A DNA stretch of 64,000 nucleotides from Styela clava (Eukaryota). Where the stretch lies: positions 19,220,001 to 19,284,000 of the forward strand of contig NC_135250.1 of the NCBI RefSeq assembly GCF_964204865.1, written 5' to 3'. The notes under the pieces were generated by a model. It did not search any database and was not told the DNA's origin. It was given only the letters and a program-made list of their open reading frames with translations. Shown piece by piece: positions 1,928-63,094 of this stretch. Each line of letters opens with the position of its first letter. Within the stretch, counting starts at the first letter, position 1. The position numbers were made by a program, and so were the translations under genes.

Positions 1928-3588
1928 TCACATCACATCAGCTGAGTAATCCTGAGCCCAATATGCTTGCCTATTATTATATCGTTGCATGTAATATTGA
2001 TCTGATAGAAAACTCGTCATATTTGGAGGGTAGTAACCCCTCGTGCTTCGACTCATCATACCACCATGCATCGGATGAGGAAATGGGTAAGAGTGATAAT
2101 CGTTTCGTGAAGTAATTTGGGTCGAAATACGTGAGAAATTTGCATTGTGATTAGGACCAAAATGTTGTCGACGCTGTAGTTGATTATTTCGTTTTTTCAT
2201 GTTGGGACGTGTCTTTGAAACAGCCTTCGCCTTAGTTGTGGAATCACGCGATGGTTCAAGTGATGAAGACTCCGGAGCTTTAATTGGCGACGGTGGTACT
2301 TTTGGTTGCTCTGAAATACATGAATGCGAGTCTTTTTGCGGATCATCATTCACTTGAGAACACCCAGGCTCTAAAATACATGAATGAGAGTCGTTTTGCG
2401 GATCAGCGGTCACTTGAGAACATCCAGGCTCTGAAATACATGAATGTGAGTCGCATTGCAGATCATCAGTCCCTTGAGAATCTCCAGGCGAGTCTGGAAT
2501 TACAATAGTTGGGATGTCTATAGAATCCGATGTCTCTTGTGAAGCAGGTGGCTCCGTTGTTTTATCAGTCAATTTCTGAGGACTATTTATCAAAGATTCT
2601 TTGAGTGTGGAAGTCTTTGGGTAAACCTTCTGCGCACCTATCGCAGGAGAAGAGGGATGAGGTTGCGCCTGTTCTGTTATAGGATCTCCGACTGTTTTCG
2701 AGGTAGATTCCTGCTGGTCTGTCATCGGTGGGGTATCAGGTGTCGGAAGCAAAGGTTTTGAGGTAGTCGCGCCGTCCAGGGGGCTGGGCGATCTAGGAGT
2801 TGATACAGCCGCTTTGGGATGACAATAAGGTTTAGGACGAAATGCATCTGGAACTTTTGTTCTGTGACTGTCCAACGTTATTCTATCAACATCTATTCGT
2901 TTTGGTTTAGACCTAGAAGTTGGTGATCTACTTCTGTGGGAAGTATACGGTCTTGGAGATTTTGAGCTGCGCCTGCTGTAAAATGGCGGCTGCGAATATC
3001 GAGGTTTTTGCCCTGAAGCACGACTGTTTTTTTCGGACCGAGAAATGTTACTACTCGAATGATGAGCAGTCTTTGGTCTTTCGGGACGATTTTCTTCGCG
3101 GCGTGTTGGAGGTGTTCTACATCGCCTTGGTGATCTAACAAAGTTTTCGTTGTGTCGGACGGATTCCCTGGTTTCTGCAAAACGTCTTCGTTTTGTCGAT
3201 CTCCCGGTCGAGTCGTCTCGACAGTCACGCACGTTTGGGCAGGCTACTCCGGTAGGAATATCAATGCGACGCTTCATTGTATTTTCTTTCCCTGTTTTGG
3301 CAGGACTTTTATATTTTTCAACCACGCTGTTTTTCCGTTCGCGATCATTGCTAGGACTCCTGCTTTTAGCGCGACAACTCCGACTAAACGTCAAGTGCCA
3401 AAATGAATGGTCTTCAAAAATGGCTGCCATGACAATTTTATCTTGGGCCATGACATGAGATGGACTTTCAGTGGCAAATTTCTTGTTGAGTTGCAAAATA
3501 TGATCGGCATACTTTTCTGTTAATGTTACTAGTCCTGACATGCTGGAAGCCTTAAGCCTTCCTACATCATCGGAAACAGATTTCATCA
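1928..3588 (-). CDS. Orphan, mostly disordered protein of about 550 aa with an Arg/Ser-rich segment, a Pro/Ser/Thr-rich middle, a 3x20-aa repeat and a Tyr/Gln/Asn-rich tail
   Basis: 1.7-kb ORF, more GC-rich than its flanks. An acceptor (ttcacttacag) lies just upstream of the first ATG (MKSVSDD...). No recognisable domain. Confidence 0.65.
2308..2489. repeat. Coding minisatellite, 3 x 60 bp
   Basis: Three copies of ctgaaatacatgaatg.gagtc...gatca...cacttgagaaca.ccaggct, encoding DSHSCISEPGCSQV..DPQ on the minus strand. Confidence 0.9.
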
Positions 3589-3926
3589 AATTCTGTAAGT
3601 GAACAACAATTATGGGACAATGCAAAATGACAAGTAACTTGCTAGCATTAAAATAGCGACGATAAAATTAAAAACGTACAGCCGTTTAAGAAGATTGTGT
3701 TAAACGCGATCAAATATATAAAGAATGAAACAGGAAAATCGTATAGAGCTTAAAGTGCGCTTAAACGATATTAAGGAATAGTATCTCTTCATTCTGTCCG
3801 TATTTGAGGAACAAAGAAACGATTGAATGATTGTTAAAATAAACTGAAAACTTATAACTACTTTTAAGGCATTCAGTAATATATTTACTATTCATGGAAA
3901 TAGAAATAAATAAAAATTCAAATATA

Positions 3927-4514
3927 TTACAAAGTATTAACCTTCAATCTCTCCAAATGAGAACCGAGATAATCCATTTGTTCCTGGAATTCAGCGATGC
4001 CAGATTTCCTAGGCGAAGTCTTCATATTATCGTCAGTGGCCTCTGAAGATTCTCGTCTCATCTTTATATAGCTTTCATATGATATTTTGTTCGTTTTTGA
4101 AGTATTATGCGTGAAATGCTCAGGCCCGGAAGTTGCGGTAGAAGTTCTTCGAACTGGCAACACAATACTCGAACGTTTAACAGGTGCTGTGTTGACGCCT
4201 ATCTCTTTTACTGCTGGAATTGATGCAGGCATGGTTGCAGAGTCGCTAGTCCTAACTACAGCGTTACAGGAGACATCTTTCATTTTTCTTTTCGTCTGTG
4301 TCTTTGCTTCTCTAGTTCTCATTTTTATTGGATCATTGCCAGCGTTCTTTTTCCCCACATAAGTGGTCTGTGTGTAACAGTGTACTCCTGATTTTTTGGT
4401 CATATAATTCATTTCCTTCACAGAGTCGAAAAAATCTTCCATTTTCATCATTTCAATGGTCCCACGCGGCGACGGGTTTGGGGGAATGAGCATTATATAA
4501 GTTGAATCTAACAT
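3927..4514 (-). CDS. Orphan 195-aa protein, or an upstream exon of the 1928-3588 gene
   Basis: ATG-initiated 588-bp ORF preceded by acceptor-like AG sites, with coding-like composition and a short amphipathic C-terminal helix (IAEFQEQMDYLGSHLERLKV). No family recognised. Confidence 0.5.
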   Translation of the reverse strand: MLDSTYIMLIPPNPSPRGTIEMMKMEDFFDSVKEMNYMTKKSGVHCYTQTTYVGKKNAGNDPIKMRTREAKTQTKRKMKDVSCNAVVRTSDSATMPASIPAVKEIGVNTAPVKRSSIVLPVRRTSTATSGPEHFTHNTSKTNKISYESYIKMRRESSEATDDNMKTSPRKSGIAEFQEQMDYLGSHLERLKVNTL

Positions 4515-5396
4515 TTTCTAATATATTAGTTGCTTTTACCTAAATGCGATAAGAAAAGAAATTGAGGTATACCTAACAAGCCTTTGACAAAACAACTATC
4601 TTTCTCAGCTACTAAAAATAGAATTTTCAAGGGTGGTACTCGTGGCTTTATTGCATAAGTCTAGGCTAATAATTTCTAATTATCATATTGACATCTTTTA
4701 TGCATGACCGTTCATGGTACAGAGGTATAGAATAGAGTAGCGGTTCCCGGTCGCAGGCCCGTGGACCACCAAGGGGGCCACATAGCAGTTGGAAGGTTTA
4801 ACGGATATCCGTGTAGGGGAAATCGGGATCAGGGGATGAGGCAAAGCGGGGTGAAAAATTTTGATAATTTAAAAAAAAGTCCAGAAACGATCAAAAAATT
4901 ACACTGCGTTCCACAATAAGCATTGGGGGTCTACTATTGTAAAAGTTTGATAAATGAGAACATTTTGTGCATCTGTCCTGAAACCACGCCAACGGGAACA
5001 TAATCTTCAGAAGCAGATAACGTGACAAGAAAATTAAAAAACCGTCGGGATAGAGTGTATTTATTTTAAACAAGTTTATTAAACAGCAAGAGGACTCGCT
5101 TATTTTTGAGCCAAGATTGGGTATTGACGTGTTAAAAGTTCGTGATATTCCAACTTTATCGCCATTTGTAGCAAATCAGCGTTAATCAACAAAGCCCAAT
5201 CTCTGAACGGTACCCCAGTTTGTTCCCCAGCATTTCAATATTGGAGGGGTGTTTCCGTATTTTGAGGAAAACTTAAGACCTATTTGACTGCTCATTGAAT
5301 TATGTTCAACTACTGGGTGTAGCGAAGAACAATGAAAATATGATAGACGAGAGGTAATAATATTATAATTGAAAAATATATATACAGAAGACTCGC

Positions 5397-21600: not shown

Positions 21601-21966
21601 TTGCGTATAACACTGCGAGGGGTCTATCAAGATTGAACAAATAAAGTAGTTTTATGCATACTGAGGGCGGAAAAAAGAATTCCGAAATAGAAAAAGGAAT
21701 TAAACTAAAACGGTTGATTTGGAGCATTGCGATTATGGATTGTTTTTAATACTCTTGATATTGTTTTAACTGTAATTACACTGTCTTTACATTTTATAGC
21801 ATCCCTATGAGAAATTGCCTCAGATGATTCAAAATCCATGATATAATTTGGAATTGAGCTTAAGTGAAATATTATATATCGTGTATATTACCGTGTACTA
21901 ATTTGAACTATAAAATTTATATTTCATGTTTACAGCACGATATTTTATTTTTCAAATAATATTACT

Positions 21967-24260
21967 ATGTCACTATCCAGCGCTAATGCTGTTGACACGG
22001 CTGGGGTGGAAAGAGAGAGCCATGCTATTTGGAAACCTATAGATTTGTCTCAGTCTTCAAAAGCGGTATCAATACATTGGGAGTCAACCAGCTATGGAAA
22101 CTTTCCACGGAGAACCGAAGAAAAAACAAGCCAACAAAAGGTTCTTAAATTGACCACCCCTAGTGAAGAAACACGAGATATTTGTGGAAAGCACGTAAAA
22201 GGACATGTTTCGGCAGAACCTTCTCCAACAAAACAAAAAACGGAATTAAAGTTTCGGAAATCGTATTCGTGTGACGATATATCGACGATAGGGAGAGAAA
22301 TCGCTAAGGAAAAAGAAACATCTACGTTCAAAAGTATGGACAATAGTAACCCCATAGAAAATTCCGAGGAAATACGTGCAAAACCTTCTGCTTCAAATCA
22401 TCCTATGCCTGTGCAAAACGAGATCAACCTCGAGAATGATTCTATAAATTTCAATACACAAAATGCATATTACCTTGCATCATACGAACAGTACATTCAA
22501 AAAATGCTACACTCTGTAAACTTGCCAGAGTACAATAAAACAGAATTCTATCGTCAACTAATGCTAACAATGTTAATGAGTTATACCCAAGATCCCAGAA
22601 ATATTAACTCGTTATCCACGGTTATTAACCCGTTTGCAATGGCCCAACAACCTGAAAAAATTCAACAAGAATTACACAATAAAGTGCTTGCATCATCAAT
22701 AGAAAAATATTCTGACACAAGATATGTCGCGAGAAAGCGGAGTTTGATAAAATCGCCACACAACGAAACTGATAATGACGAAGAGATAATAGTTGATGAA
22801 ACAGTGGAGCAATATGGAAACAACACAAATTCTAAAGGAAACAGCCAAGACAAATATTACAAGCGCCATTTTAGCAATCAGAGTAACGAACCAAAAGAAA
22901 TTCAACAAACAGACGACCAAATGGACACAATTAAAAATCAAGGTATTTTTAGAAATGGCACCAGTCATATTAAGATTGAAACAAAGGATGATCAAGATAC
23001 AACGAGTTCAAATCATTTGATGCCCATTCGCAGTGAATATAATCACCAATATTCCAGAGAGTTTGATGACACAACTTCAATGGCTAAAAGTTATACAACA
23101 GGAGGACGTAACCAGCATACTACACAACGTTCCGAACAGAACTGGTTCAAAAATTCAGTCATCGACAGACATGAATACGAAAAAAACAGTGAGTAATTTA
23201 CCCTAAATTTCTTAAAAACCAATTCGAAGTTTCAATCATTTTAAAATATAGTATTGGAATGGTATTGATAATTATTTTTGTAGAACATATATATATGTCA
23301 TTTTCAACATTTCTGATGAATATTTGCACAATTACAATGATGGAAGAGAGCTTTAAGGTCTAAAAACCTGGATTTATGTTAAAGCTGAGATTTTCATCAA
23401 TGGTAATACTGTATTTTAATAACCCAAATATTAATATTTTTCAAATTTCCAGAAAGTTCTCCAGAGAAAAAACATCGGAGAAATCGAACGACGTTCACAA
23501 CATATCAACTGCATGAACTAGAAAAAGCTTTTGAAAAATCCCATTATCCGGATGTCTATAGCAGAGAAGAACTAGCAACAAAAATTAGATTACCAGAAGT
23601 CAGAGTACAGGTACGCTTCGTTCAAATTTCCACCATTTTATCCGTATAGTCGCAATTTCGAACAAAAACTGATTTATGAGACTGAGAATGTTAGGGCCTC
23701 ATTGAGGCTAAGATTCACAGATATAATACCACATTGACAATGAGTCTTATACATATGTTGTTTATATTTCAGGTATGGTTTCAGAATCGACGGGCAAAAT
23801 GGCGTAGACAAGAAAAAGTAGATATCAGACATACAGTTATGGATTACGAAAACACTACTCATAGATTGAACAGTAAGCTGTCGTATTATGAGAAAGACAC
23901 AATCAAATTTCGCGTTTATTTCTTTTCAGGGCTCTTCTACTGCCATTAATAGCATTTTATAAATTCATGGAATGCACTGAATGTTTATGAATATATATGC
24001 TGTACGGCTTGCCCTCAAATATCGTATAAACCCTTATTCAAATGAAGTTACGCACTAGAATAAACTATTATCTTATAGCTTAGATTAGTATCAGATAACA
24101 TCATTTTATTTCAATGTAAGTATTATCATTTAATATGAAAATAAATTGTCACTCTTTCCATTTAGCAACTTCTCATTTTCAAACGCCAAGGAAGGATACA
24201 GCGCCACTTTTGCTTGCTTCTAACGGTGCCGGATTTCTTCTTCAAGCAGCCAAGCAATGA
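21967..24260 (+). CDS. Rx: Retinal homeobox protein Rx/Rax (PRD class, Q50). Exons 21967-23188, 23453-23610, 23773-23872, 24166-24260; the last exon is less certain
   Basis: The spliced homeodomain reads [48 protein letters not shown]|[15 protein letters not shown], diagnostic of Rx, with the typical PRD-class intron between Q and VWF. All junctions are GT-AG and in phase. Confidence 0.95.
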
Positions 24261-25505: not shown

Positions 25506-28500
25506 ATGAACCAAAGTGAGGGATGTTCTTCGGAGTTCAAAAACAGATTAGAATATTTGGAATTCTCGCCATGTAAAGGTATGCTACGTACTACTACGAT
25601 TCGTGTGTCTTACCATTAATACGCATTTCCAACAAATACTTACCTCAAAAGCGCTGCCATGCACTAATTTACCGTAGCCAATAACGTTTAATTGCAGGTA
25701 TATTGTCGCACTTGCATAACGACCCATTTTAATTTATTACACTGTATATTGGATGACTCAGAATTGTAGTCTACGGCTCTACGCCATCCCCGAATACTTT
25801 CCAGATCATTGAATAGATAAGAGATCCAACCCTGCGCCTGAAATAAATTATATCAAATATACCTCGAAGCCTACGAGGTTGACTACGCAGAGAATATCTG
25901 ACTTCGTAAACTGTTTGGATGGCACTATTGCAATATACTCTTCATAACGTGTTTGGATAGGATCTAGTCATAAAACAAGGCACCTTTTACCGGTCATTTA
26001 TCTTAGACTATCACGAAGTGCATATTCTGATTCATTCATGCTAGATTTTTGTTTTCGTATCACAAGCTGAGATGCGTATATGCAGCAGAGCTACTGTGAT
26101 AATTGTGGTTTATTTTCGGGTTGACTGCACTTTCTAAAGAGGCACAACTGTTTCAAACCTTTTAGCAATATGTAATTGTATTCTTGGTACAAGATTAATA
26201 CACAGGTGAAGATGCTTGTAGCTTCTTTTTAACGAGTTCACTTGATGCCAAAACAATTTTAATGTTTTTCGCTGTGATCTTGTAGGATATATTTTGTTAA
26301 AAATACTAATATTCCCTTCAATCTCGTCAAGTTTTTCATACATATATATATCATTTTTTTTTATTATCATCTCACAGACAAGGACGTTTCTTCACTTGTA
26401 CCTGGAATCAACAAATGGAGTACTGAAGATCACAGTAATGACATTCACAGCGAATTCCGACCAAGACTGCATTCGTCACCTTACGTTGACGAGAATTTTG
26501 TTGGTCGTCTACGTACGATAAACAAAGAGAAGCAACGTTTTCAACCTGTGCCCTTTTTATCCATCGACGACGAAAGTTCTCACATCCTAACAACACCGCA
26601 CCTGTCACATTATACATCAAAAGAACATGCAGAGCAGTTTACGGATTCCGGGGTTGATTCTGTCGTCGGTTTACAACAAACGCGCTTCTATGACAATCTA
26701 TCGTCCCGTGGCTACCCAGCAGACTCTGGCGTTGTGTCGTCTGTGGGACTTGGTTCCTTAGGCAGTTTATATCATAGTAATGATACTGGCGAATTCGAGG
26801 CTATCGAAAAGCGCGCGGAAGAAGAAAAATATGCTTTCGACCCGCTCGCGCCACCTTTCAAGCCGAGGAGTACCGTAACAACAACGCATGACCTACAATT
26901 TGATAAAAGCAATGTCATGGCAATAGACGTAGCAAATTACGTGTCGTCCAAGTACAACAAAAAGCCTGTTTTGGAAGAAGCCCGCTTACCATTTTCCGAT
27001 ATTACAAATCATATATCGGATTTACCCGAATTGAAAATGACAAGTAGAATTCCAAAAGCAGGATTATCCCATGAGCCGAATTCGAACACGTTAATTCCTC
27101 CTTCCTCAAACTGTTATTGGTCAACAACAAACGAAACAACATCTAAAATTGTTCTCTCGACTTCAGTCAGCACAAATGTTGCTGCGTCTTCGCGAGAGAA
27201 AATGCCTGTTTTGAGCGACATAGTAACTTCTGACAGCGTACTACGGCAACCTGCAATTGCGAAATTGGAAGAACCCAATCCAATCACGAATGGAATAAAG
27301 AATTCACCACTTGCGAAGACCTGGATATCACCACGTTTTGGAGACGCTACGAATTCGAAAGTTATGACTGCTAAATCAATTTCTCCTACACCCTCTTTTC
27401 AAAATAGAAAGGAAAACATACAAACAGAAAATATGTCAACAATATCTAACCCATTCGATCTTGGACTTGGTCTCGCCACAGGAAGCAACATCTCTGTTTG
27501 GAAGGATTATGACCTTTTAAATCCGCATGAAAATCCAAAGACTTCGGCGTCACATAATGATGATGGGAATTTGGACTCCAAGTGGAGGGTGAATCAGAAT
27601 CTTTTTCGCATGAACTCTCTCTCTAGTCAAAGATACACGGGTGAGTTTGTTGTAATGTGTACTATATATGCCACAGCATACTAGTCACAATTTTTTTTAA
27701 AATAACTTTGATGTGGAGACAAACAATTCATAGTTTATGTTATGATCAAACTAATTCACCATTTGTTTTAGATCTGCAAAATCCACAGAAGAAAGTAACA
27801 TTTGCTGATATTGTACAAGCCGGAATCAGGGCGATAAACAGACAAAAGTAAAGATTGTATTTATTAATCTAGTTAACAAATAGTTAGTTATAAATTCATG
27901 TAAAAAGAGCATGAAACAGCCAAACGCTGGAACAATAACTGCAATGAAAAAAGCAAAAATTAGATTTCAAATAATAAAACTTTCGTCAAGTTCTTTGTAG
28001 AACGAAATGTAGTTTTTCAGTTGTTGTGTAAGCAGCCAAATATAATGAACTCGTAACATTGCATACTTGCATAAATGTGCTTTTCCGTTGGAAATTTTTA
28101 TTTTTACAGAGCCGAAAATCCGGATTTTTACGCCCCCACCTATGAACCATCATCATCTTCAGCCATGGAACCGCCCACTATTCTTCATGTGACGACATTC
28201 GATCCAAATCACGAGCGAAATGATATCTTTGTCGATACGGGGAAACTGAAGAATGGTATTTATGACAGATTACTGTGTGTTTAATTTATGCCACTCATAC
28301 CTGTATTCTTATTTTAGATGAGCAAGAAACGCACAAGCCTTCGAAGTATCGCACAGAGCCATGCACAACCTTTCATACGATCGGCGTTTGTCCATATGGT
28401 ACACGTTGCAATTTCTATCACACGGACGCAGAGCGAAACGAACTTCCGACCCTTTCCAGTGCAATGAGGCAAGTTAACTTATATAGCAGGAAAATGAATT

Positions 28501-30930: not shown

Positions 30931-33900
30931 CAGTGGCGGCGCGTCAATAGGGCCAACCGGGCCATTGTCCCGATTGTTTTTTCGGTATAATAAAAATATT
31001 CGAAAAATACCTCAATATCGGTTGCACAGACTGTCTACACTAGCCATATTCTCCCGACATGGTTCATTTTTCGCTCGCAAAGCCGACATGGTTCATTTTT
31101 CGCTCGCAAAGCCTTCGCCGAACGTCGACGGGGCGACGCCGATTTCGCCCCGGTTGCTCATTGTATATCGTATTCTCTCTTTTATCTTCCACTCGCCGCG
31201 TTTGTCTCGTTTCTTTTACTAAATCATCGGGGCCGTTGGGGGCTAGCCCCGAAAAATATGACGACACAATGCCGACGTTTCTTACAACAACGTGTTGACA
31301 TATTCACGCATTCCTTCTCGTTCGTTGGTTGCTTGAAGAGTTGATAGTTTCCTCGCTTTCGTTTTTGTCGCTTGTTTCGCTATTTGAATCAGTTAGAGAC
31401 CTTTAGTCCATTTGCTTTCGATTTTCCACATTCCTTTTGAGCTACTCACTTCTTTCCGGCTTCGCATTTCTTAGCCTTAGACCTCATAATGAATTGATGC
31501 ACTATTTCGCACTCCGTTTTCGCAGCTGCCGCTGGAACAAAAATTAGAGGTACAACGTCTTGGGCCTTATCAACCAAAAAATTGTTCACTGGAACAATCC
31601 CATGACGGAGGAAAGCGTCGGCGTACATTCTGCGCAGAAACTTGGTATAAAAAACACGAATGGTTATGTTACAGCGAGGACAAAAATGCATTTTTTTGTT
31701 TTTATTGCCTACTTTTTGCTACCGCCCGTTACTCACGTTGGTGTAAATTTGGTTTTAGAGATCTTAAACATCTTTCCGAGCGTGCCAGGGATCATCAATC
31801 TTCTATGGAGCATCTGAACAATGCAGTAAAATACCGAACATTCGGAAATGTTAATATTGCAGCACAGTTGGATGAAGGACGCGCGGTTTCTATTCGTCGG
31901 CACAACCAAAACGTCGAGAAAAACCGCCATGTTCTCGGTCGATTGATAGATGTTTTGAAGTTCATTGGTTGTCACGAGCTGTCCCTCCGTGGGCACGATG
32001 AACGGGCTGGCTCTTCTAATAGAGGGGTATTTTTGGATATGGTGGAATACACCGCATCCCTAGATACAGTATTGAGAGATCATCTTGATGCCGCAACTGT
32101 TTCGAAAGGGACATCTAAAGATATCCAAAATGATTTGCTCGACTCAATGTATAAAATTTATTTACAAAATTTGGCTCTGGAAATTAAGAATTGCCAGTTC
32201 CTTTCGAGACAACTGACATCACGTGCGTTTCCCAACTGGCTGTGATTTTTTCGGTTTGTGAAAGATGGTAAACCTACCGAGAGATTTCACAGCTTTGTAC
32301 CAATCGTTGATAGCACGGCTTGCGGGATATCGGCTGTACTGAAAGAAGTGTTACAGCCTTACAAAGCGAAGTCAAAATTGATAGCACAAACTTATGACGG
32401 CGCGGCAGTCATGAGTGGGTCGAAACATGGTGTTCAAGTTTATATAAAAGAAGATTTTCCTCATGCGCATTTTTTACATTGTTATGCACACTAATTTAAC
32501 CTCGTTATTAAAAATATGTGTCTTGATACCCCTCTCGTCCGTATATTTTTTGCAAATGTTTCGGGGTTTTCTTCATTTTTTTCCGTTTCGCCGAAGCGCT
32601 CTGACCTCCTTCGCCAGATATGTAGCCGCCGTCTCCCAGCTTGTGCACCAACACGTTGGAACTTCCAATCACGCGTGGTGCAGGGCGTGTCCGAAATTAG
32701 GTCTGAGCTCATTGAGTGTTTCAATGGCATTCAGAGCTCTACGGTTTGGGACGAACGCTCTGTGAGGGAGGCGGCAGGTCTAAAGCGTCTGCTAGAAGAT
32801 GGGGAGTTTTCATTTTTCTCGCTTTTTTCTCCACAATATTCTATCACGTGGATGTATTATACGACGCATTGCAGTCAAGGCTAATGGATGGAGCGTCTGT
32901 GCAGTCGTGTATTTCAGACTTCTGCGATGCTGTATCTCGTATCCGGCAAACAATAAAATACGACGACACATGGAGTGCTTCTTCACGCCGCGGGCAAACA
33001 ACGCAGCGTTTGATTTTGTCTGCAAAGGAATGCTGTGACATTCTTGTGAATCAAATAGGCGATCGTCACTGAACACCCTGCCGCGTTCTCTTTGATGAAC
33101 CGCAAAATTTTTTCAAAATTTGCACGTCAATTTCCCATCCATTTGTTGGCTACTGTCTCCAAATTTTACCCCATGATAAACGTGGGTAAATTGGAAAATG
33201 AATTGCGATGTATATACACCAATCAAACTTTTTTGAACATCACATCAACTTGCGCGCTCTATGGGTTCCTCATAGATAACACTCTAGTAACTACCTTTGC
33301 AGCGTCTGCAAAATTTCTGGACATCTTTTGACGACGCCTATTTCTTCCGCCGACGCAGAGCGAACATTCAGCACGCTGAAGCGTATTAAAACGTATCTCG
33401 GAAACACAATGAAGCAAGATAGATTAAATTCCTTGGCTGTTTTATTCATTCAGAGAGACGTTATTTCTGGGATGCATGACTTTAATCAGCGCGTTATTGA
33501 GCATTTTGCTTCCAAGAAACCGCGGCGTGTTGCATATATGTTCAAGCAGTATAAGTCTAGCAGCATATATATATATGAGTGAGCGACGCATGTCCTTATC
33601 TTTGCATTATCTTTCTTTTCTTCATAGTAACGTTTTAAACCTTATTTTAGGTTTTGTTTGCTTTCCCGAAGTTTCTGTTAATATGTCATTGTATTTATCT
33701 GGGTAAATATTGCCTCTCCTTTTGAAAGAGGTTTCAAAATAAACTATGTCTATATTTATTAATCCCTTGACTTGGACCGGTTTTAAAGACACTTTCTTAT
33801 CGTTAAAAATTGTCGCTTTTGCCGATTGATTGTTACCGATGGAATGGTTTTTATACTCATAAAATGATGGGAGAACTTACAGCGCTCATCCTGTCCCCGT

Positions 33901-33966
33901 AGATGGGGGTGACTTGGTCCCGCAGTAGCTTGCCCCGGTTGTCAAAATGACCACGCACCGCCACTG
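30931..33966 (+). mobile_element. Full-length hAT DNA transposon (ZMYM1-like/Tip100-Blackjack type), 3036 bp
   Basis: TIRs cagtggcggcgcgt and acgcaccgccactg match 13/14. Perfect 8-bp TSD atatatac at 30923-30930 and 33967-33974. Transposase remnants lie inside. Confidence 0.95.
31602..33582 (+). pseudogene. Frameshifted hAT transposase
   Basis: Ordered motifs across shifting frames: TTF-type Zn finger (WYKKHEWLCYSEDKNAFFCFYCLLF), LSLRGHDE..SNRGVF, QTYDGAAVMSG, HCYAH followed by an in-frame TAA, PTRWN, and the hATC dimerisation motif PISSADAERTFSTLKRIKTYLGNTMKQDRLNSLA. Confidence 0.9.
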
Positions 33967-35423
33967 ATATATACTATGGAGTGTTATAAATGTGGAAAAT
34001 AGTTCCTCCGAGATATCCCGATACGCGTAGTATACAAAATATTGCCTCGCAGTAAAAGGCTGCGGTACCCGTCACGAAAATCGAATTAAGGGTTGAAAAA
34101 ACAACCGATAAAAGTCTCGTGCAAAGAAACCGTTGCGCAACATTAATTTTATGAAGCTTAGTCGATGCTCAGACCTGTAGTCCTGTACGCATCGACTATC
34201 TCCAAGCTGAAAATTAGCAATCAAAAGGTCGTTTCCTCATATCTACTGCGATTACGATATCGTTCACAACAATATTTTGTCAATACATTGCCCATTCACG
34301 AAGCTGACTCACAGTTTGGAACACACAACTTGTAGTTATCTCAGCAGGACTACTCAACTATTTTTACCGAAGATCCGCACACAAAACTTTCGGCAAAACA
34401 CAAATATTTCGGCATCCTTAAACGCGCACTTCCTGGGCCCGCTAATGATTATTAGCTAATCAAAAATGTTTATTAGGGTGCTATAGTTATTTTCATATAT
34501 ATTCAAAACAATAAAAGTTTTTATAAAGTGAAACTTTAAAAGTGGGGCTAATGATCCAAAATAAAGAATTAGGTGCGGTCCGAATCAAATACTCGAAAGG
34601 TCCGGATTCGGACCGTGGTCCGCTAGTTGAGTAGCCCTGGACTATCTATCTTGAACAGGCTTACGTCATAATGGTCACACAATGGCAACGCAGTTGGATA
34701 CGCTTCATTTCCTATACTATACATCAAACACCAAGGCGGAAAATATTCTGCTTTTAGCGAAAAGACTATGTGTAACCTTTTAAAATAAGTTTTTTATAAG
34801 ATGCCATCTGCACTGGTATACACTTCCTGAATATTCAAATACAATTCTATTCAAGTTGGGAATTAAAAGAAGTGTGGCGATACATCCTCAAATTAGAGGG
34901 CGGTGTTTGGAATTTTAGGAGGGAAGGGGAAGTTTAAAGGAATCACGGATGCTTTGCAATACATTTTTTTTTTCAATGAATATGCTTGACATGTAACACT
35001 AGCCATGGTTTTTGCCAACATCATACTCCGTGCGGCTTTCACTACAGATTTCTGCTGGTATATTTAGGTAGGCTGCAGTATATATTACTGTATTAGCAAA
35101 TTTTGTGTATTGATATACATCAAAAATAATTTTTTATTTTGTGTCTAAAATGAGATGTAATAAATTAGTCAATATATATATATTCTATATAAACAAACAC
35201 GACATATCGATACGAAAAATAATAAAAAAAAATAAGAAAAAATGTTGTTCGCATGTTAAAAATGAAACTAACTATATCCGATCGCTAGCGGGACTGTTGT
35301 TGAAGTTTTGTTTTGAAATCCACACTTGCGCCGCCGATGAAAATAATTGCAAAAGACAGCCTAACGGCAAGACAAATGATATTGTCTTAGGTATTGATTT
35401 CGCCGCTTATATACTGTTGTTAT

Positions 35424-35746
35424 AGCCGGGGTGGACAAGGTTTTTGGACCGGGGCCGTAAAAAGTTACATTTTGTGAACAATATTTACAGTGTTACAAAT
35501 GCAAAATTGAAAAACAATAAGCCTCGCGCCAAAACTAAATTTAATCGAAATCTCAACAAATTCCTTGAGCTATTTTGAGGCGAAATAAATAGATGTGAAA
35601 AGCGCGCCGCCCAATCGAGCGAGCGAGAAAAAACATGAAGATTTGTTGACGTCCCCTTAACATGAAAGTCTGTGGCTACCTAAAATACAAATCGCACAGG
35701 CGGGCCTGATTGAATGACCTATCGGGACGGATTTGGCCCGAGGGTG
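35424..35746. mobile_element. Degenerate Charlie-like hAT MITE
   Basis: Left end ccggggtggacaaggtttttggacc and right-end subterminal motif gcgggcc...cggatttggcccgaggg. No clear TSD. Confidence 0.45.
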
Positions 35747-35958
35747 TTATAGTTTTGTATTTTTCTAGTTTTTGAAATTAAAACTCAATACTATTCATAA
35801 GTGGAAATTCCCATTGGTGGAAAATTCAGTTACTGGGTTGTTCTCAATTCTGTTGCTAAGGTCTAGACTTGATCTGCCTCTTCACGTTTATTCACCGAAT
35901 TGGATCGCCCAAATCCAATATATATACATGATTTGATATTGATATGTGTATAAATGAA

Positions 35959-36823
35959 TCATGATATTTCGGTCACTGTCCAAGATGAAGCAGAATTAAC
36001 TTGACCTTCCATGGCGACGGCATATCCCTTTTCATCAATGTCTAGCCATAACTTGGGGACAGTGACAGATTGAAGATGTGCTTTTCCTGTCAATGTACTG
36101 TGGATTAGTCTCAAAACGCGATTGTCTTTTTTAAGATTTGGTATGTCTTCAGGCTCACAGCCTTCTCTAGTTACTACAAGACGACCAGCTGTGGATGGTA
36201 CTTCAATATATCCGATTGTATTTGCGCAATGATCTTCAATTCCGAACAAAAATAGATCTTCGGCAAGTTTCCATCCCACAAGTTCGTAGTCTGGGGTATC
36301 ATAAGATACTTTAACTGCGAAACGTGGTCCTAACTTTCGGACAATCCAACTGGTGTCACTAATGGTATGACGTATTAGGGCTCTGAATTTGTGTGTGTAC
36401 ATGACATCAGAATAATCGATTGTAAAATTTTGTCTTTCTCTACGTATTCTACAGAACAAAAACAAATAATGAATATTGATGCAGCTTTTGTAAATGGGTT
36501 TAAAAAATTAGTGGTTGGTACTATTCAGACGTCCAAACTATAAGTAGTATTTTGCAGATGCGATTCATGGCAATTATGGAAAATAACAAATTTTGACAAG
36601 CACGAAGTTTGACATATGTACCGAAAACATGGATTCATAATATCCTTCGTCGACAGAAATGGGGGCTAAGACCCGGTTCTCACTTTCCACTGTGACGGTG
36701 ATGTGTTACTAATTATTTTACTAAGATTATGACATCAATACTGTAATCAATATCTCGCCATGGTTCCAATGAGCAAAACCTAATAAAGCTTGGAACTCAC
36801 TTTCCCGGTTCTTTATTACCCAT
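35959..36823 (-). CDS. Leaderless protein of about 170 aa, predicted beta-trefoil cytokine-like (IL-1/IL-18-like; FGF-like is the alternative). Exons 36823-36801 and 36448-35959, with an alternative in-frame ATG at 36838
   Basis: ATG GGT AAT AAA GAA CCG GGA AA|gtgagt splices in phase to tttgttctgtag|A ATA CGT. The alternating beta-strand pattern and the C-terminal HLQSVTVPKLWLDI resemble the IL-1 signature FESAQFPNWYIST. The family call is by eye only. Confidence 0.7.
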
Positions 36824-37801
36824 TTTTTTGACATACATTTGAAGGAATAAGAACTCATTTGGCGAAGTGTTACGAATTGGTGAAGCAACTCAATATTCTA
36901 GGTTGACGAATATATATATCACAAAAACGATACATGCCTACTTATTCAATTTGAGATTATTGCATATGGGCGTCAAATAACACTAAATGTCTCAAATATT
37001 AAGCAAATGTTTTATATACTAAATAATTTTTATTATATCTTTCTTCCTACCGCGGGTCAATGCCAATGACGTTCAGAGTTAAAGAGCTCAATCAATCAAT
37101 TAATAATCTTTACTTGTCATTTGGACGATATCTGTTCTATAGAGTTTATGCTATTTAGTATTAATGAAACTTCTACTAGCGAAGGCTCTGATAGCTAATA
37201 TACTTCAAACGACGACGCTCTCTCACTATAAAGCACAGTAGTCTATAACTATCCTCTAAAATTATTATTTTGCTAAGCACCTTCTACTGCCACGACAATA
37301 CCAGAAAATAATAAATATTGATGACATATGCCCACAGGCAAATTTGAATTAGTGATTATTCCGTGGACGGCCCCTATCATAGAAATGGTATTTGGAAATC
37401 ATATACGAACAAGTGTGAATTATAGATGGATGTGTTGGTAAAACGTGGTTCATCTATAGTTCAGTCTTGACCCTAGTAAATTTTCTTGATAGCTCTCTTA
37501 ATCGATCTACCATTTCTAAAAATTAATAAATAACGTGACACGCACTTGAAATACGCTTCCGGTATTCAAACATATCTATTATATTTTTATCTTCAAGTAA
37601 TTGTATAGATATTCTACTATGTATTAATAAGAGTAGACTTTGAAACTGTCTAGGATACATTCTTCCGAGAAATTTTGGTAATAGATTGCTCGGCATTGGC
37701 GTCTTTAAATGACAATTTTACTAAACGCGATTCTTCATCTTGATCGCCATGCCATGCGAAACTTTAAATTCTACCACTGAATTTCAAACGTTATTGTATG
37801 A

Positions 37802-38339
37802 CAGCGATGGCAAACCTTTTTTTTAATGGGTAAGGAATGATATTCGAATCAATGAGAAACGCCATGTTAAATGTTTTTTCGCGCGTCTTGTAATCATGGA
37901 ATGTTTGTGCGTTAATAACGCTACAGAAACCATTGTTTCAAAAATTTGAAAGTAATTCCAAATAAAGTCACTGCCAACCTGCCCCATTATTATTCCATAT
38001 TTCTGTAGTCGTTAATTCAAGTCTTTAAAAAAACATTCCGCTGCACCACTTGTTTTCTGCACGTCCAAAATGGAACCGTTGTAACAAGACAAGTTGCACG
38101 AAATGAACAGATCATTTTGATTTTGATCTCATAAAGATAAACGATATAGAAGCATTGTTCTCGATAGCTGCATGGCGGGACTATAGTACTCCATTTATCG
38201 TTTGTTTTCTATCATTTTAATAGTATATATTCATCACAGAAATATCAATATGTTTTTTGCATGATTCATGACTTGGCGGGCCACTGGAAAAACATGACGG
38301 GTCACTTCTGACCCTCGGGTCAGTGGTTCACCATCTCTG
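37802..38339. mobile_element. Old hAT/Charlie-like MITE
   Basis: Imperfect TIR cagcgatggcaaacc/ggttcaccatctctg and subterminal ggcgggccac...gaccctcgggtc motifs. Confidence 0.5.
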
Positions 38340-40744
38340 GTACATGATATGCTAAACAATATTTCAGTCCTCATTTTCACTCTGAACTTGTTCACGGACG
38401 CTCGACTCTAATGAGGCACAGCTAGTCTGAGTAATTTTGCGAATTTGTTAATTATTCCTTCTAATAACCCATGACTATCTATGAAGAAACACTAATGCTA
38501 TTTTAAAATGCCACGAAGTTCGGTGTTCAAAATTTTCCAATGCGCACACTAAGATTACTATAATATGGGACAACTAGATTGCTGTGGCTACAGGGACCTT
38601 TCGTCAACGCATAATGACCGTCATAAATACATTAGTCGTGCTGTTCAACAGGGTGATAATGCATAAATAGTAGGCGCTAAGCGCTGTCACTTAACATCGG
38701 ACTCCTCATGTACCGGTATGTCATATTTTAACATACTGCTAATCAGCTAACTCTCGCGGCACGTTAGCACAATGACTGATTAGTTATCACTTAGCTGTCT
38801 GATTAAATTCACTTTTACTGAGTAGCTAGCTATACATCAACGGAAACAGTTTCCAAATTGGCGCATGCCGATCAAAGCGTATAGATTGATTACAGAAAGG
38901 TACAAGCATATAGAACTGAAAAAAAAATCTTGACGAAGCACAATCTGTCCAATATGTCGGAATGACCAGAAAACTCCAAGTAAAATTTACCTGTTTTATA
39001 GAGTTCGAAATCCGTCTGAACGTACCTTACAGACGTTTTTAAACGAAGCATCATTTGCCAATTTTGTGATCGCGTACAAATGCAAAAGGTCATTTGTCTG
39101 GTCAAAATATTTCGTGATGAAATGGAGAATACGTTAAATTCGTTCGAAACAAAATTTAACTAACAAAGCAAGTGAGCGCCATTATGTAATTATCTTTATA
39201 TAGTTATTAAAAATGCGTTTTCCCAACTTTTCTGTTTTAACAGAAACGATCAGTAGTCCACGGAGAAAAGATTGAAACATAATTTACAATGAGATTGCAG
39301 AATCTCTCGCAGGAATAATGTTTCGCATGCCAATCGTTTAACTTTAAATGGTCTGTGTTTAGTTGTGATTTGGACTGAGATTTTGCTCCAAAAAATTATA
39401 ATGTAATTAGATATCAGATAAGTTTGATATATATAAAATATATTAAGGTAGATATATATAAAAAAAAAAGTGCCTAGGTGAATTTTATGCGTCATACTAG
39501 TTTTATCGACCATGTACACATAATTCTTGGAATTGTCAAACATTTGGCGATCTGTGTAGTCTGTGCAATAGTTTATATACAGTTTTTGAGACATTTGGGC
39601 GCACGGTTACCCAACCCTATGTAATATTACTATGCTAATTTTAAGCCAAAACCATAGTAGTAGACTCTACCGGAAGTGATATTTCAAATTCGGTCTCCTT
39701 TTGACGTCACATTTGACTGATATGACCATTACTCGCATCATTCATTCACGTTGAAGATGCCTCGTCGCATTGAATCGTGATAAAAATTGAAAATAAAAAA
39801 CTCTACACGATGCTTTACACAAATTTTGTGGGAAAGGAGAAAATTATGTAAATATTTTTCCATGAAGAAATCGCTGTTTAATGAGGTATAGATCGAACAG
39901 GAAATATGACCCATATTTAATAGTATAACGAAACCTATTTTACAATGGAGTTATACCAAATTTTAATATGTCGATGTTAAGTTATTATGCCAACATTTAT
40001 AGTCTGCTTTTTTAAGAATTGAAAACATAATTTAAAATGTAGTTCAAAATCAAATTATAGAAGTCACACGTTTTATATATATTTATATAATTAACAGGAT
40101 TTGAATATCTTTAGCATGCAAATATGATAGTACATGGTTTACTGACTGAAAAGCAATAAACTTAATGAATTCCGGTATTTTCACTTCACGCAATTAAATT
40201 TTCTCCCTTCCAAAATTTCCTTTTAATTGTGCAAATTTTCTCAATCGCCAAGAAAATTTATGCCATCAGTGCTACTTTGTGAAATTCATTGTCACCCAGA
40301 TAATTTTTGAGTGTTCACGTTTAACGCTTTAAGTCAATTCGTGATTTTGTTTTGGACGAAAACAAAATATGTTTAGTTTTTAAATAATTCAGATCGGCTA
40401 TAAAGTTGCAATGTTATCATATTTTGTTATGTAGTCAGTCATAGTCAAGTTTATTTTTTCCATGTAGTAAAAAATAGCATACGAAATTGACAAAATACAA
40501 AATTGAACACACATATTTACTGGGGAGGGAAGTCGCGGGGAACCAGGATTGGTTATCGAGCGGCGACACCCAAATGTATGTATTTGGTTGGACGACATGT
40601 CGATTTAAAAATTTTCGACCGTGCCATACTGACACAAGATTACTAATCGAACACTCCTGGAATTGCACAGATAGCTGAGTGGAGTAATCTGCAAAATATT
40701 ATATACATGTTTCAATTATTGGACACGAAATGTACATATGGATC

Positions 40745-45385: not shown

Positions 45386-46102
45386 AGTAAAGAATTTTAG
45401 CCTGGTCTATCACAGCTATTTCTACACTAATTTTTATTACTGCAATTAAATTAAAACTCCCAGGAAGACAGAGTAATCATTGAGTTATTTGATTTACATT
45501 TAGATTTCCGAAACACAACTGAAAACTAACAAATAGAGTTCAAAAATGCGCAAACGAGGTAGTGTTTACGACCACGCTTGAAAATCTGTCTGGGTGAGAC
45601 AAGTGTCTGAGCGGATGCAAAAAGGGAGCATTGTTACGTCACTTTTTGCATCTTGCTGATTAGCCAATGTCACGAAGTAAACAAGGCAGTCGATGCTCTG
45701 GGAAAGGTCCATTCATTTTTCAAACCAGAATAAAATTTGCCCTAAACGTGAATAACATATTTGCAGACCTGTAGCTTTGTCATGGATGTTTTTTTTTTTT
45801 GTTAGTTCGACCGTGTTTATGAATGAGCTTGGCAATTCTGATATCTGATATGCTGAATACAAATTCATCCAAAAAACGTGATCGAATCATGGTTAACTGA
45901 TCATCGAATCCACCCTTCGGCATTATCATCAAATATTTTTACCGCGTGGGACAAAATTTTTTGTTCAACAGTTTCTCCCAAACGTCCCGGACTTGTCCAG
46001 CTTTTGTCTGTTGTTCCGATCGTCTCGCATTTGTCGTCTGATCGAATCCCAGTGCTACAGTCCAGCAGTCGGAGAAGCCGGCCGTACTTGAGCGGCTTGA
46101 TT

Positions 46103-48571
46103 ATGAAAGAATATTTCGCCGTAAATGGCTCTCGGAACTCACTTCCTGGAGGAGCTAGAATTGCTAAAAAGGGGACTACCAACGGATGGAATTCAGTATC
46201 AGAAAGACCTGTCGAGGAAGAAAGCATCGACCATCTCACATGCGAGGATGAGCAGATACCATCCTGTGCAAGTAACATAATGTCACCCCAAGGATCCGGT
46301 TTTCAACAAAATGTAGGATTTACAGGACTAAATAATCTCGGAAACACATGTTTTATGAATTGTGTGCTTCAAGCTCTCGCAAACATTCGGGATCTTCGAG
46401 ATTATTTTCTAAGCCACAATTTTCTTCAAGATCTCAATGAAGAAAATCCACTCGGCACTGGTGGTCGACTAGCAAAAGCCTTTTATACAACATTGAAAAA
46501 CTTGTGGTCTGGTAATGATACTTATGATCCAGCAAGGTTGCGGAATATTGTAGCAAAAAAAGCTCCTCAGTTTTTGGGAATTATGCAACAGGATGCGCAA
46601 GAGTTCATGTCATTCTTTCTTGATGCTTTACATGAGGATTTGAACAGAGTTCGAAATAAACCAATATTTGAAGTGGGTGATTATGATGGTTATCCAGATG
46701 AGGAGGTTGCGAGAATTTCTTGGAAATTGTATAAGTCTCGTAATGATTCGTTTGTAATAGATAAGTTTCATGGCTTGTATAAATCAAGATTGTTATGTCC
46801 TGTTTGCGAAAAAGAATCAATAACTTTTGATCCGTTTCTTTTTCTATCTGTTCCTTTACCTAAACCAACAAAAAGTGTTCCCGTTATATTCTTCCCATTG
46901 CTTGATGACACAAAACCTTTATTCATTGATGTCAAAATATCTGAAGAAGGCGGCCTTGCGTCAGATGTTTTAAATCACATCGTAAAGACTTATGGCATAA
47001 ATTCTCAAAACTTAAGAGTGTTTTTAACAGAATCTGGAAAAATAGTCAGAACTATTCCACCAAGTTCACTTTTGCCCTATTTGACATCACCAGAATCGCT
47101 TATCGTGTGTGAGATTTCACAATCTGAAGAACCAAGCCATGAAATCATTCTTATGCAAAAGAAGGAGACTCCAAAGATGGTTGATAATTGCGCAAAGTGC
47201 GGAAAATGTGAAGACGAATTGGGCTTCAAAATCAAGCGATGTTTGAAGTGTAAATCAGTCGGATATTGTGGTCAAGATTGTCAGAGATCTGACTGGCCTC
47301 AGCATAAGCTAAAATGTAATCAGATAAGATTTATTGGTTGTCCATTGTTTTTGAACATACAGTCATCAATGGCTAATTACCACAAAATTTGTGATATTGC
47401 ATATTCAAATGCAAGGCATTCAGTGAAAATCCTCAATGATGAAAGAATGGAAGGTATATCAAAGTTTGATGGATTAAAAAGAAATTTGAAAGAAAGTGAA
47501 AAAGCAGCAATAGCGTGTGCATATGTTGGAGACTCCCTACCTGCTTATATGAAACACGAGAGCATGTTTAATCTATACATTTGCCATGATGAAAAGCTAA
47601 CAAATATGACATTGCTCGAAAATAAAGCTGGCGAAAAAATCGATCTAACTGATGTCACACACTTTGTGATTGAGTGGAAAATTGGTGTTAATGTTGCAGA
47701 AAAGCCTTTACATTCAGGCATGAAATCTGGCAGGCATAATAATACAACCTTACAAGATTGTATACAATTATTCACAGAGCCCGAAGTGTTAGCCAGAGAA
47801 GAAGCATGGTATTGTCCGAGATGCAAGAAACACAGAGAAGCGACAAAAGAATTATCACTTTGGCAGCTGCCTGATGTTCTTGTTATACAGCTCAAACGAT
47901 TCTCTTTCAGGAACAGACTTTGGCGTGATAAAATTGATAAACTTGTCACATTTCCTGTTAAAGGTTTAGATATGAGTCCATTTTGTATAAAACAGCAGAC
48001 AGAGCCACCTGTATATGATTTGTTCGGAGTTGTCAATCACCACGGTGGCTTGTTTGGCGGACATTACACTTCTTTTGTTCAATTAGCGGATGAAAATGGC
48101 GGAGACACTGATCTTGGATGGCGTCTATGTGATGATACACATGTGACCACAGTCAGGTCAGAAAAAGAAGTTGTCACAAGTTCATCTTATGTAATGTTCT
48201 ATCACAGACGTAAAAAACAATCTGTTTTAAGTGGGGATTGTTTGTCTGATGATCAATTTACACAACTGAACATGCCCCATCATTCTAATGAAATAAAATG
48301 CACTAAACAGTGCTCTGAAATTAAAGACAGAAATGTGAAAGTTCCAAGACAATCAAAGATAGCCAAACAACCAGATGAAAAAAATTCACCCATCAATCAG
48401 AAAGCGTCACAGTCAACACTTAGTACAGATAACAAATTAACAAGTAATGATGGAAAATCTGATCGGTGTCCACACGAAGAAAAAAGCATTGAAATGAATG
48501 TCTCAGCTAAAGTCGATACAACAAAACAGGAAGCACCTCTGCCATATACCGATATGGATGCTATGGATTAA
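46103..48571 (+). CDS. USP19: Ubiquitin C-terminal hydrolase 19-like (USP domain with an inserted MYND finger), single coding exon
   Basis: Cys box GLNNLGNTCFMN, QQDAQEF, MYND CAKC..CLKC....YCGQDCQRSDWPQHKLKC, WYCPRCKKH, His box NHHGGLFGGHYTS and WRLCDD. A MYND finger inside the USP domain is characteristic of USP19. The first in-frame ATG is 46103; the ORF track start at 45878 is a GTG. Confidence 0.88.
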   Translation: MKEYFAVNGSRNSLPGGARIAKKGTTNGWNSVSERPVEEESIDHLTCEDEQIPSCASNIMSPQGSGFQQNVGFTGLNNLGNTCFMNCVLQALANIRDLRDYFLSHNFLQDLNEENPLGTGGRLAKAFYTTLKNLWSGNDTYDPARLRNIVAKKAPQFLGIMQQDAQEFMSFFLDALHEDLNRVRNKPIFEVGDYDGYPDEEVARISWKLYKSRNDSFVIDKFHGLYKSRLLCPVCEKESITFDPFLFLSVPLPKPTKSVPVIFFPLLDDTKPLFIDVKISEEGGLASDVLNHIVKTYGINSQNLRVFLTESGKIVRTIPPSSLLPYLTSPESLIVCEISQSEEPSHEIILMQKKETPKMVDNCAKCGKCEDELGFKIKRCLKCKSVGYCGQDCQRSDWPQHKLKCNQIRFIGCPLFLNIQSSMANYHKICDIAYSNARHSVKILNDERMEGISKFDGLKRNLKESEKAAIACAYVGDSLPAYMKHESMFNLYICHDEKLTNMTLLENKAGEKIDLTDVTHFVIEWKIGVNVAEKPLHSGMKSGRHNNTTLQDCIQLFTEPEVLAREEAWYCPRCKKHREATKELSLWQLPDVLVIQLKRFSFRNRLWRDKIDKLVTFPVKGLDMSPFCIKQQTEPPVYDLFGVVNHHGGLFGGHYTSFVQLADENGGDTDLGWRLCDDTHVTTVRSEKEVVTSSSYVMFYHRRKKQSVLSGDCLSDDQFTQLNMPHHSNEIKCTKQCSEIKDRNVKVPRQSKIAKQPDEKNSPINQKASQSTLSTDNKLTSNDGKSDRCPHEEKSIEMNVSAKVDTTKQEAPLPYTDMDAMD

Positions 48572-51317: not shown

Positions 51318-63094
<11,777 letters not shown>

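Follow-up and report, generated by a model that had tools for sequence, protein, structure and literature searches.

A predicted beta-trefoil protein family of ascidians with likely ties to the IL-1 superfamily

The DNA considered here (the window) is a 64,000-nucleotide stretch of Styela clava, positions 19,220,001 to 19,284,000 of contig NC_135250.1 in assembly GCF_964204865.1. A small gene at window positions 35959..36838, on the minus strand, had been described from its letters alone as a candidate IL-1/IL-18-family cytokine gene with a caspase-type propeptide. The observations hold in part, and the interpretation is supported in part. The reading favoured here is that it encodes a leaderless protein with a single predicted beta-trefoil, probably an IL-1-superfamily cytokine nearest to IL-18 in shape, and that it is one of 14 loci belonging to an ascidian-wide family.

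The gene and its product

The coding part of exon 1 (36801..36838) has 13 codons, with a Met at 36838 and a second Met at 36823, and matches database model P0002. A phase 2 GT-AG intron of 352 nucleotides follows (36449..36800): its donor at 36800 reads GTGAGT, and its acceptor at 36449 is the sole pyrimidine-rich acceptor in a splice-signal scan of 35100-37300. Exon 2 (36448 down to 35959) is a 162-residue open frame with its stop codon and holds the remaining N-terminal piece and the entire predicted trefoil. In UniRef/nr, the Styela clava protein XP_039269174.1 (uncharacterized LOC120344146; 175 residues) has an identical exon join and differs at residue 2 only; a single database model exists for this gene. 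The exon 2 protein is identical in the other Styela clava assembly, and among 40 of the 56 variants listed none falls in exon 2; the flanks vary. Open frame, splice signals and database model agree with the two exons that had been proposed. The proposed lack of a signal peptide is matched by a hydropathy screen, the only test used for this, which found no signal-peptide-like stretch in the 175-residue protein (best 9-residue value 0.4), and the residue counts given earlier (148 after the DYSD site, with the Ile of IRH as residue 11 after it) are correct.

Predicted fold and family

Residues 19-161 of exon 2 (35962..36393, minus strand) are predicted to form a 12-strand beta-trefoil, with a predicted local distance difference test score (pLDDT) of 92.8 and a predicted template modelling score (pTM) of 0.84. 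This model and the structural searches made with it support the trefoil that the original prediction expected. Foldseek places the IL-1 family on top, with IL-1beta at rank 1, and the protein shares 177-186 ESM features with IL-18 as against 93-108 with lectins and inhibitors. In IL-18 superpositions, model residue 14 (the final Asp of DYSD) lies opposite IL-18 residue 37, at a model pLDDT of 60-69, and this offset agrees with the strand-1 register that had been drawn by eye. A viral fold library returned generic trefoils only. A separate single-sequence AlphaFold model was discarded (pLDDT 37.3).

The gene has many relatives. Genome searches found at least 14 related loci. C1, C13 and C14 carry four each, this gene being among those on C1, and C2 carries two. 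At 13 of them strands 2-12 lie within one open frame, and the 14th is broken by a frameshift. The query is 15-22% identical to the nine paralogues aligned with it, and two paralogue models are likewise two-exon with a coding first exon. N-terminal pieces, rich in Ser, Asp and Glu, range from none (P0003) to about 170 residues: most paralogues carry some 120-170 residues ahead of a C-terminal trefoil and total 270-325, and this copy has about 27 only. One locus (L050:4767-5194, plus strand; C14, ~10.453 Mb) is a recent, frameshift-split inverted duplicate of P0003. Another paralogue (L066:1420-2082, minus strand; C2, ~16.728 Mb) has a hydrophobic, signal-peptide-like stretch after its first Met and, by analogy with IL-1Ra or lamprey IL-1.1, may be a conventionally secreted member.

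Beyond this genome, 31 of 1.84 billion proteins matched the family profile at E <=0.001. Twelve come from ascidians, namely 7 from Styela (four named, three matched to genome loci), 2 from Ciona intestinalis, 2 from C. savignyi and 1 from Clavelina lepadiformis, and these relatives uphold the invertebrate-chordate setting first proposed; the rest are 17 assembly proteins, one bacterial-lipoprotein-like protein (P0016) and one false repeat match. Sources were checked for 20 of the 28 new matches, and P0021, the repeat-protein false match, was removed from the alignment. The family signature P..I....D.R, which in the query (36118..36153) links strands 7 and 8 and includes two short helical turns, keeps its D and R in every one of 38 rows and its P in 37. 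The strand 9 columns read L-[Q/R/K]-[P/S/H] across the same rows, and the query has L-Q-S (strand 9-10 region, 36037..36075). Being star-like (6 of 31 branches starred; no outgroup; 4 near-duplicate rows excluded), the family tree gives neither the placement of the query nor a direction of transfer. Four divergent members (P0008, P0009, P0011 and P0013) each list a longest contig of 26,895 bases, a hint that they form a tandem cluster in another organism. The family of 14 loci, like the 2026 survey of IL-1 proteins discussed below, was missing from the original prediction.

Weighing the IL-1 assignment

Several searches gave no link to IL-1. A Pfam scan of the protein gave one chance match only, phmmer against PDB gave two, and a search of the genome with the Pfam IL1 profile PF00340 gave nothing above the cut-off; none of 10 family proteins matches PF00340, and none of 28 full-length relatives matches IL1 or PDZ in Pfam. 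The matches to IL-1beta and IL-18 once picked out by eye are thus not significant taken alone. A 10-row family profile found only weak ricin-type trefoil matches in PDB (best E 0.084). VIA-align puts lectin trefoils and IL-18 within 1 Z of each other, and in the non-redundant VIA search lectins lead, with IL-1alpha, IL-33 and IL-36gamma at ranks 28, 40 and 47; IL-18 is not among its 50 best rows, which does not exclude IL-18. The expectation that IL-1 and IL-18 would rank above FGF, fascin and ricin-B was thus supported by Foldseek and ESM features, met a tie in VIA-align and found no support in the non-redundant search. A strict NF-kB-like site lies 147 nucleotides downstream of the stop codon (35803..35812, minus strand) and is one of 2 in the whole window; it is a weak hint, since only 1 of 10 scanned paralogue loci has such a site. 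As to the PF00340 miss, it does not exclude IL-1 membership, because sequence searches also failed for other invertebrate members in the 2026 survey (PMC13736523, cited throughout from the portions of it available).

The tie with lectins, their lead in the non-redundant search and the ricin-type profile matches would fit a tunicate expansion of some other beta-trefoil lineage (a cytosolic lectin, a protease inhibitor, or an FGF or fascin offshoot) whose likeness to IL-18 would be convergent. A partial Fascin match (E 0.0013, below cut-off) comes from a Ciona savignyi member, and conserved Trp residues at strand ends are reminiscent of ricin-B. However, no threefold internal repeat was found in the protein (in a search with no positive control), the ricin-B type QxW motif is absent from the family alignment, and conservation within the family peaks in the long asymmetric loop between strands 7 and 8; with IL-1 proteins ahead in Foldseek and in shared ESM features, this origin seems quite unlikely. 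Far less probable still is acquisition from bacteria by horizontal transfer in place of descent from an animal IL-1. It draws on P0016, a 183-residue homologue that matches over its full length (E 8.7e-9; hhalign 97%), has a signal peptide like that of a lipoprotein and resembles Bacteroidota lipoproteins, on bacterial clusters with IL-18-like features in the Atlas (a bacterial cluster at 0.93-0.94), and on the intronless trefoil. Yet only 1 of the 31 matches looks bacterial. Searches of 185,579 genomes and of JGI metagenomes turned up no locus for P0016, genomes and viral contigs yielded none for P0025, and viral contigs none for P0020. The one metagenome member that was traced lies in gene-poor, eukaryote-like DNA (20-29% open reading frame cover). 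Long intronless frames also occur elsewhere in this genome: a USP19-like ubiquitin hydrolase with a MYND finger occupies one 903-residue open frame in the window (45857-48571, plus strand), and an esterase and an eIF2A-family gene of the genome likewise lie in long intronless frames. Transfer from a tunicate to a bacterium would fit equally well, the tree favouring neither direction, and P0016 may represent a cytokine mimic acquired by capture, or else a donor.

A different alternative concerns this copy and is compatible with an IL-1-like family: the gene may be transcribed mostly unspliced with little protein made, or may, if trans-spliced to the acceptor, yield only a propeptide-free form of 147 residues. 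Spliced-leader trans-splicing occurs in ascidians; a literature search returned no paper on it. Four of 12 listed sequencing runs, none of the 12 being recorded as RNA, were aligned to the locus as assembled contigs: three putative RNA runs (a guess as to type) and the DNA-like run X8. A single 1605-nucleotide contig of putative RNA run X1 (35550..37154, strand not given by the contig) spans both splice sites without splicing, an X5 contig holds exon 2 and 33 nucleotides of intron, and X6 has one contig inside the intron. Cover of X1 stops in flanking bins where X8 goes on, and this hints weakly that X1 is RNA. Intron sequence is thus kept in all 3 putative RNA runs, and none of the 4 runs contains the 36801/36448 junction that RNA sequencing had been expected to reveal; contigs lose minority forms and carry no strand, and therefore the presence of unspliced sequence does not demonstrate the absence of spliced mRNA. 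If unspliced, the exon 1 frame stops directly past the donor, and 14 ATGs lie upstream of an in-frame internal Met (36400..36402), the candidate start of a propeptide-free trefoil of 147 residues. The lone database model and the propeptide-free paralogue P0003 are in keeping with such a copy. On the other side stand the consensus donor and acceptor with their in-frame join, the two paralogue models built in the same way, and an exon 2 that is intact and, within the variants considered, invariant; we think it unlikely that this is how the copy is expressed.

The candidate caspase site of the N-terminal piece is DYSD (36406..36417, minus strand), a DxxD motif whose final Asp lies two residues before the internal Met and is followed by Val, which is unfavourable for caspase cleavage. 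With model residue 14 opposite IL-18 residue 37, and IL-18 described as cut at Asp36 (PMC10232970, in the part available), the two sites are one residue apart. The same register holds the xxCD/G motif of the four C13 paralogues (DVCD/G, LQCD/G, VECD/G and DRCD/G, the slash following the Asp). By contrast, 5 of 10 examined paralogues have no Asp there, and an Asp anywhere in that segment of the alignment occurs in 19 of 27 rows against 18.9 in shuffles, which is the level of chance; the dipeptide DG occurs in 6 of 27 rows against 1.4, four of the six coming from one tandem cluster. The suggested search for relatives that keep the Asp found a family, with the Asp in register in four members and lacking in half of those examined. 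The caspase-type propeptide first proposed remains plausible but weak: an Asp in register with IL-18 and four paralogues speaks for it, and the chance-level Asp count, the paralogues lacking it and the unseen spliced mRNA against it. Cleavage of this copy at DYSD is possible though on the doubtful side, the odds being higher for the C13 paralogues, and a propeptide this short may be dispensable for activity.

If the favoured IL-1-like reading is correct, analogy suggests that the protein would be made in the cytosol without a leader, released on cell damage or lytic death, and bound by a receptor with immunoglobulin-like (Ig), transmembrane and TIR parts that signals to NF-kB; its N-terminal piece of about 27 residues would be trimmed by a caspase at DYSD or bypassed through the internal Met. 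A TIR search of the genome found five loci. Three on C10 carry leucine-rich repeat exons and are TLR-like; they correspond to three tandem genes at 21.22-21.25 Mb (L037-L040) with leucine-rich repeat exons, a transmembrane stretch and TIR, one TIR match holding two stops. A candidate IL-1-receptor-family gene, on C2 at ~727-736 kb (minus strand; L041, L042), combines a TIR domain with Ig-like exons and a transmembrane stretch: all 6 PDB matches of its TIR are to SIGIRR, IL-1RAcP or IL1RAPL, with SIGIRR the best. A short TIR query indicates a single copy of this gene, which shows one Ig-like domain only in a search of ~40 kb upstream and lies 16 Mb from the two C2 paralogues. Searching the genome for the gasdermin family gave no candidate, which does not demonstrate absence. 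A wider proposal can be offered tentatively, and taken as a whole it is improbable: a PDZ-free ascidian branch that would be sister to vertebrate IL-18/IL-33, with caspase-activated IL-18-type signalling dating from the tunicate-vertebrate ancestor, a 14-gene system of long-prodomain DxxD/G forms, propeptide-free forms, a signal-peptide form as possible antagonist and a matching Ig-TIR receptor, and one member taken over by a bacterium to serve as a surface lipoprotein.

Around the gene, an AATAAA polyadenylation-like signal (35887..35892, minus strand) lies 67 nucleotides past the stop, and the end of an X6 contig at 35863 is a weak hint of its use. Short high-copy repeats at 34519-34644 and 35456-35576, of very high depth in 4 of 4 runs, flank the 3' side, and a broken hAT-like transposase (DUF4371 match, in several frames; 31493-33582, plus strand) lies 2.4 kb downstream. 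There is no Rfam match in 33000-40000. Elsewhere in the window, long low-complexity frames at 21907-23196 (plus), 26278-27684 (plus), 1928-3667 (minus) and 3927-4517 (minus) have no Pfam match at E 0.01, and neither does an exon at 60985-61269 (minus) that resembles a BRSK/SAD-type kinase.

Comparison with known systems

Tunicates are the sister group of vertebrates, and IL-1-like activity on tunicate cells was reportedly described by Beck et al. in 1993, going by the title of that work. The literature searched, which largely excludes subscription papers, holds no description of a tunicate IL-1 gene family and no mention of six family identifiers. The 2026 survey finds ancestral-type IL-1 proteins (IL-1anc) across Eumetazoa, in lamprey, amphioxus, echinoderms, molluscs, crustaceans and cnidarians, and gives no candidates in Ciona intestinalis, Botryllus schlosseri or Styela clava; its search began from the PDZ domain, it cautions that divergent members may be missed, its preprint agrees with it in the parts available, and LOC120344146 is absent from the available parts of its supplements (PMC13736523). 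If the present family is IL-1-derived, it would fill the tunicate gap of that survey, whose PDZ starting point it would escape. PDZ-free IL-1 forms would then have expanded outside vertebrates too, which bears on the origin of the IL-18/IL-33 branch. The family also points to named genes in a model species (LOC100187150 and LOC100181539 of Ciona intestinalis) and offers candidate molecules for the old reports of activity.

Compared with ricin-B/CBM13-type lectins (MOA, Mitsuba-1, galactanase CBM13), which align over fewer residues at higher root-mean-square deviation and share far fewer ESM features, the family lacks both threefold repeat and QxW. Vertebrate IL-18 (PDB 2vxt, 1j0s, 4xfs) is only about 10% identical to the query, which has no PF00340 match and differs from IL-18 further in lacking the FES motif, in having its trefoil in one exon and a Val after the Asp, and in its 14 paralogues. 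IL-1beta, IL-1alpha and IL-33 have the same fold as is predicted here, and most paralogues resemble them in joining a long Ser/Asp/Glu-rich N-terminal piece to a C-terminal trefoil; their geometric fit, however, is below that of IL-18 and several lectins, and this copy is nearly without a prodomain.

A further comparison, made by description, is with IL-1anc. Unlike most IL-1anc proteins, the family has PDZ in none of the 28 members scanned, and the N-terminal piece of the query is too short for one; the (F/L)ES motif frequent in strand 9 of IL-1 proteins (PMC13736523) is missing from all 38 rows. The IL-1anc trefoil is spread over 3-5 exons and interrupted by two central introns that are conserved, whereas that of the family lies in one frame at 13 of 14 loci, a difference weakened by the long intronless frames elsewhere in the genome. 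As to linkage with GCC2, ESD, EIF2A or IL-1R, a further mark of IL-1anc, no link to ESD- or eIF2A-family genes was seen: the ESD-like gene is on C18 and eIF2A-family genes are on C3 and C17, contigs on which the family has no locus. Lacking PDZ, FES and the trefoil introns, the family is therefore not filed as IL-1anc. It is nonetheless like IL-1anc in being an invertebrate IL-1-type trefoil unseen by Pfam and BLAST, with a lineage-specific expansion and a short helical element between strands, and some IL-1anc proteins are themselves without PDZ, one lamprey member having a signal peptide as one paralogue here possibly does. Set beside these systems, the family is likely a PDZ-free variant within the IL-1 superfamily that has expanded in tunicates, a lineage for which the available text of the 2026 survey reports none.
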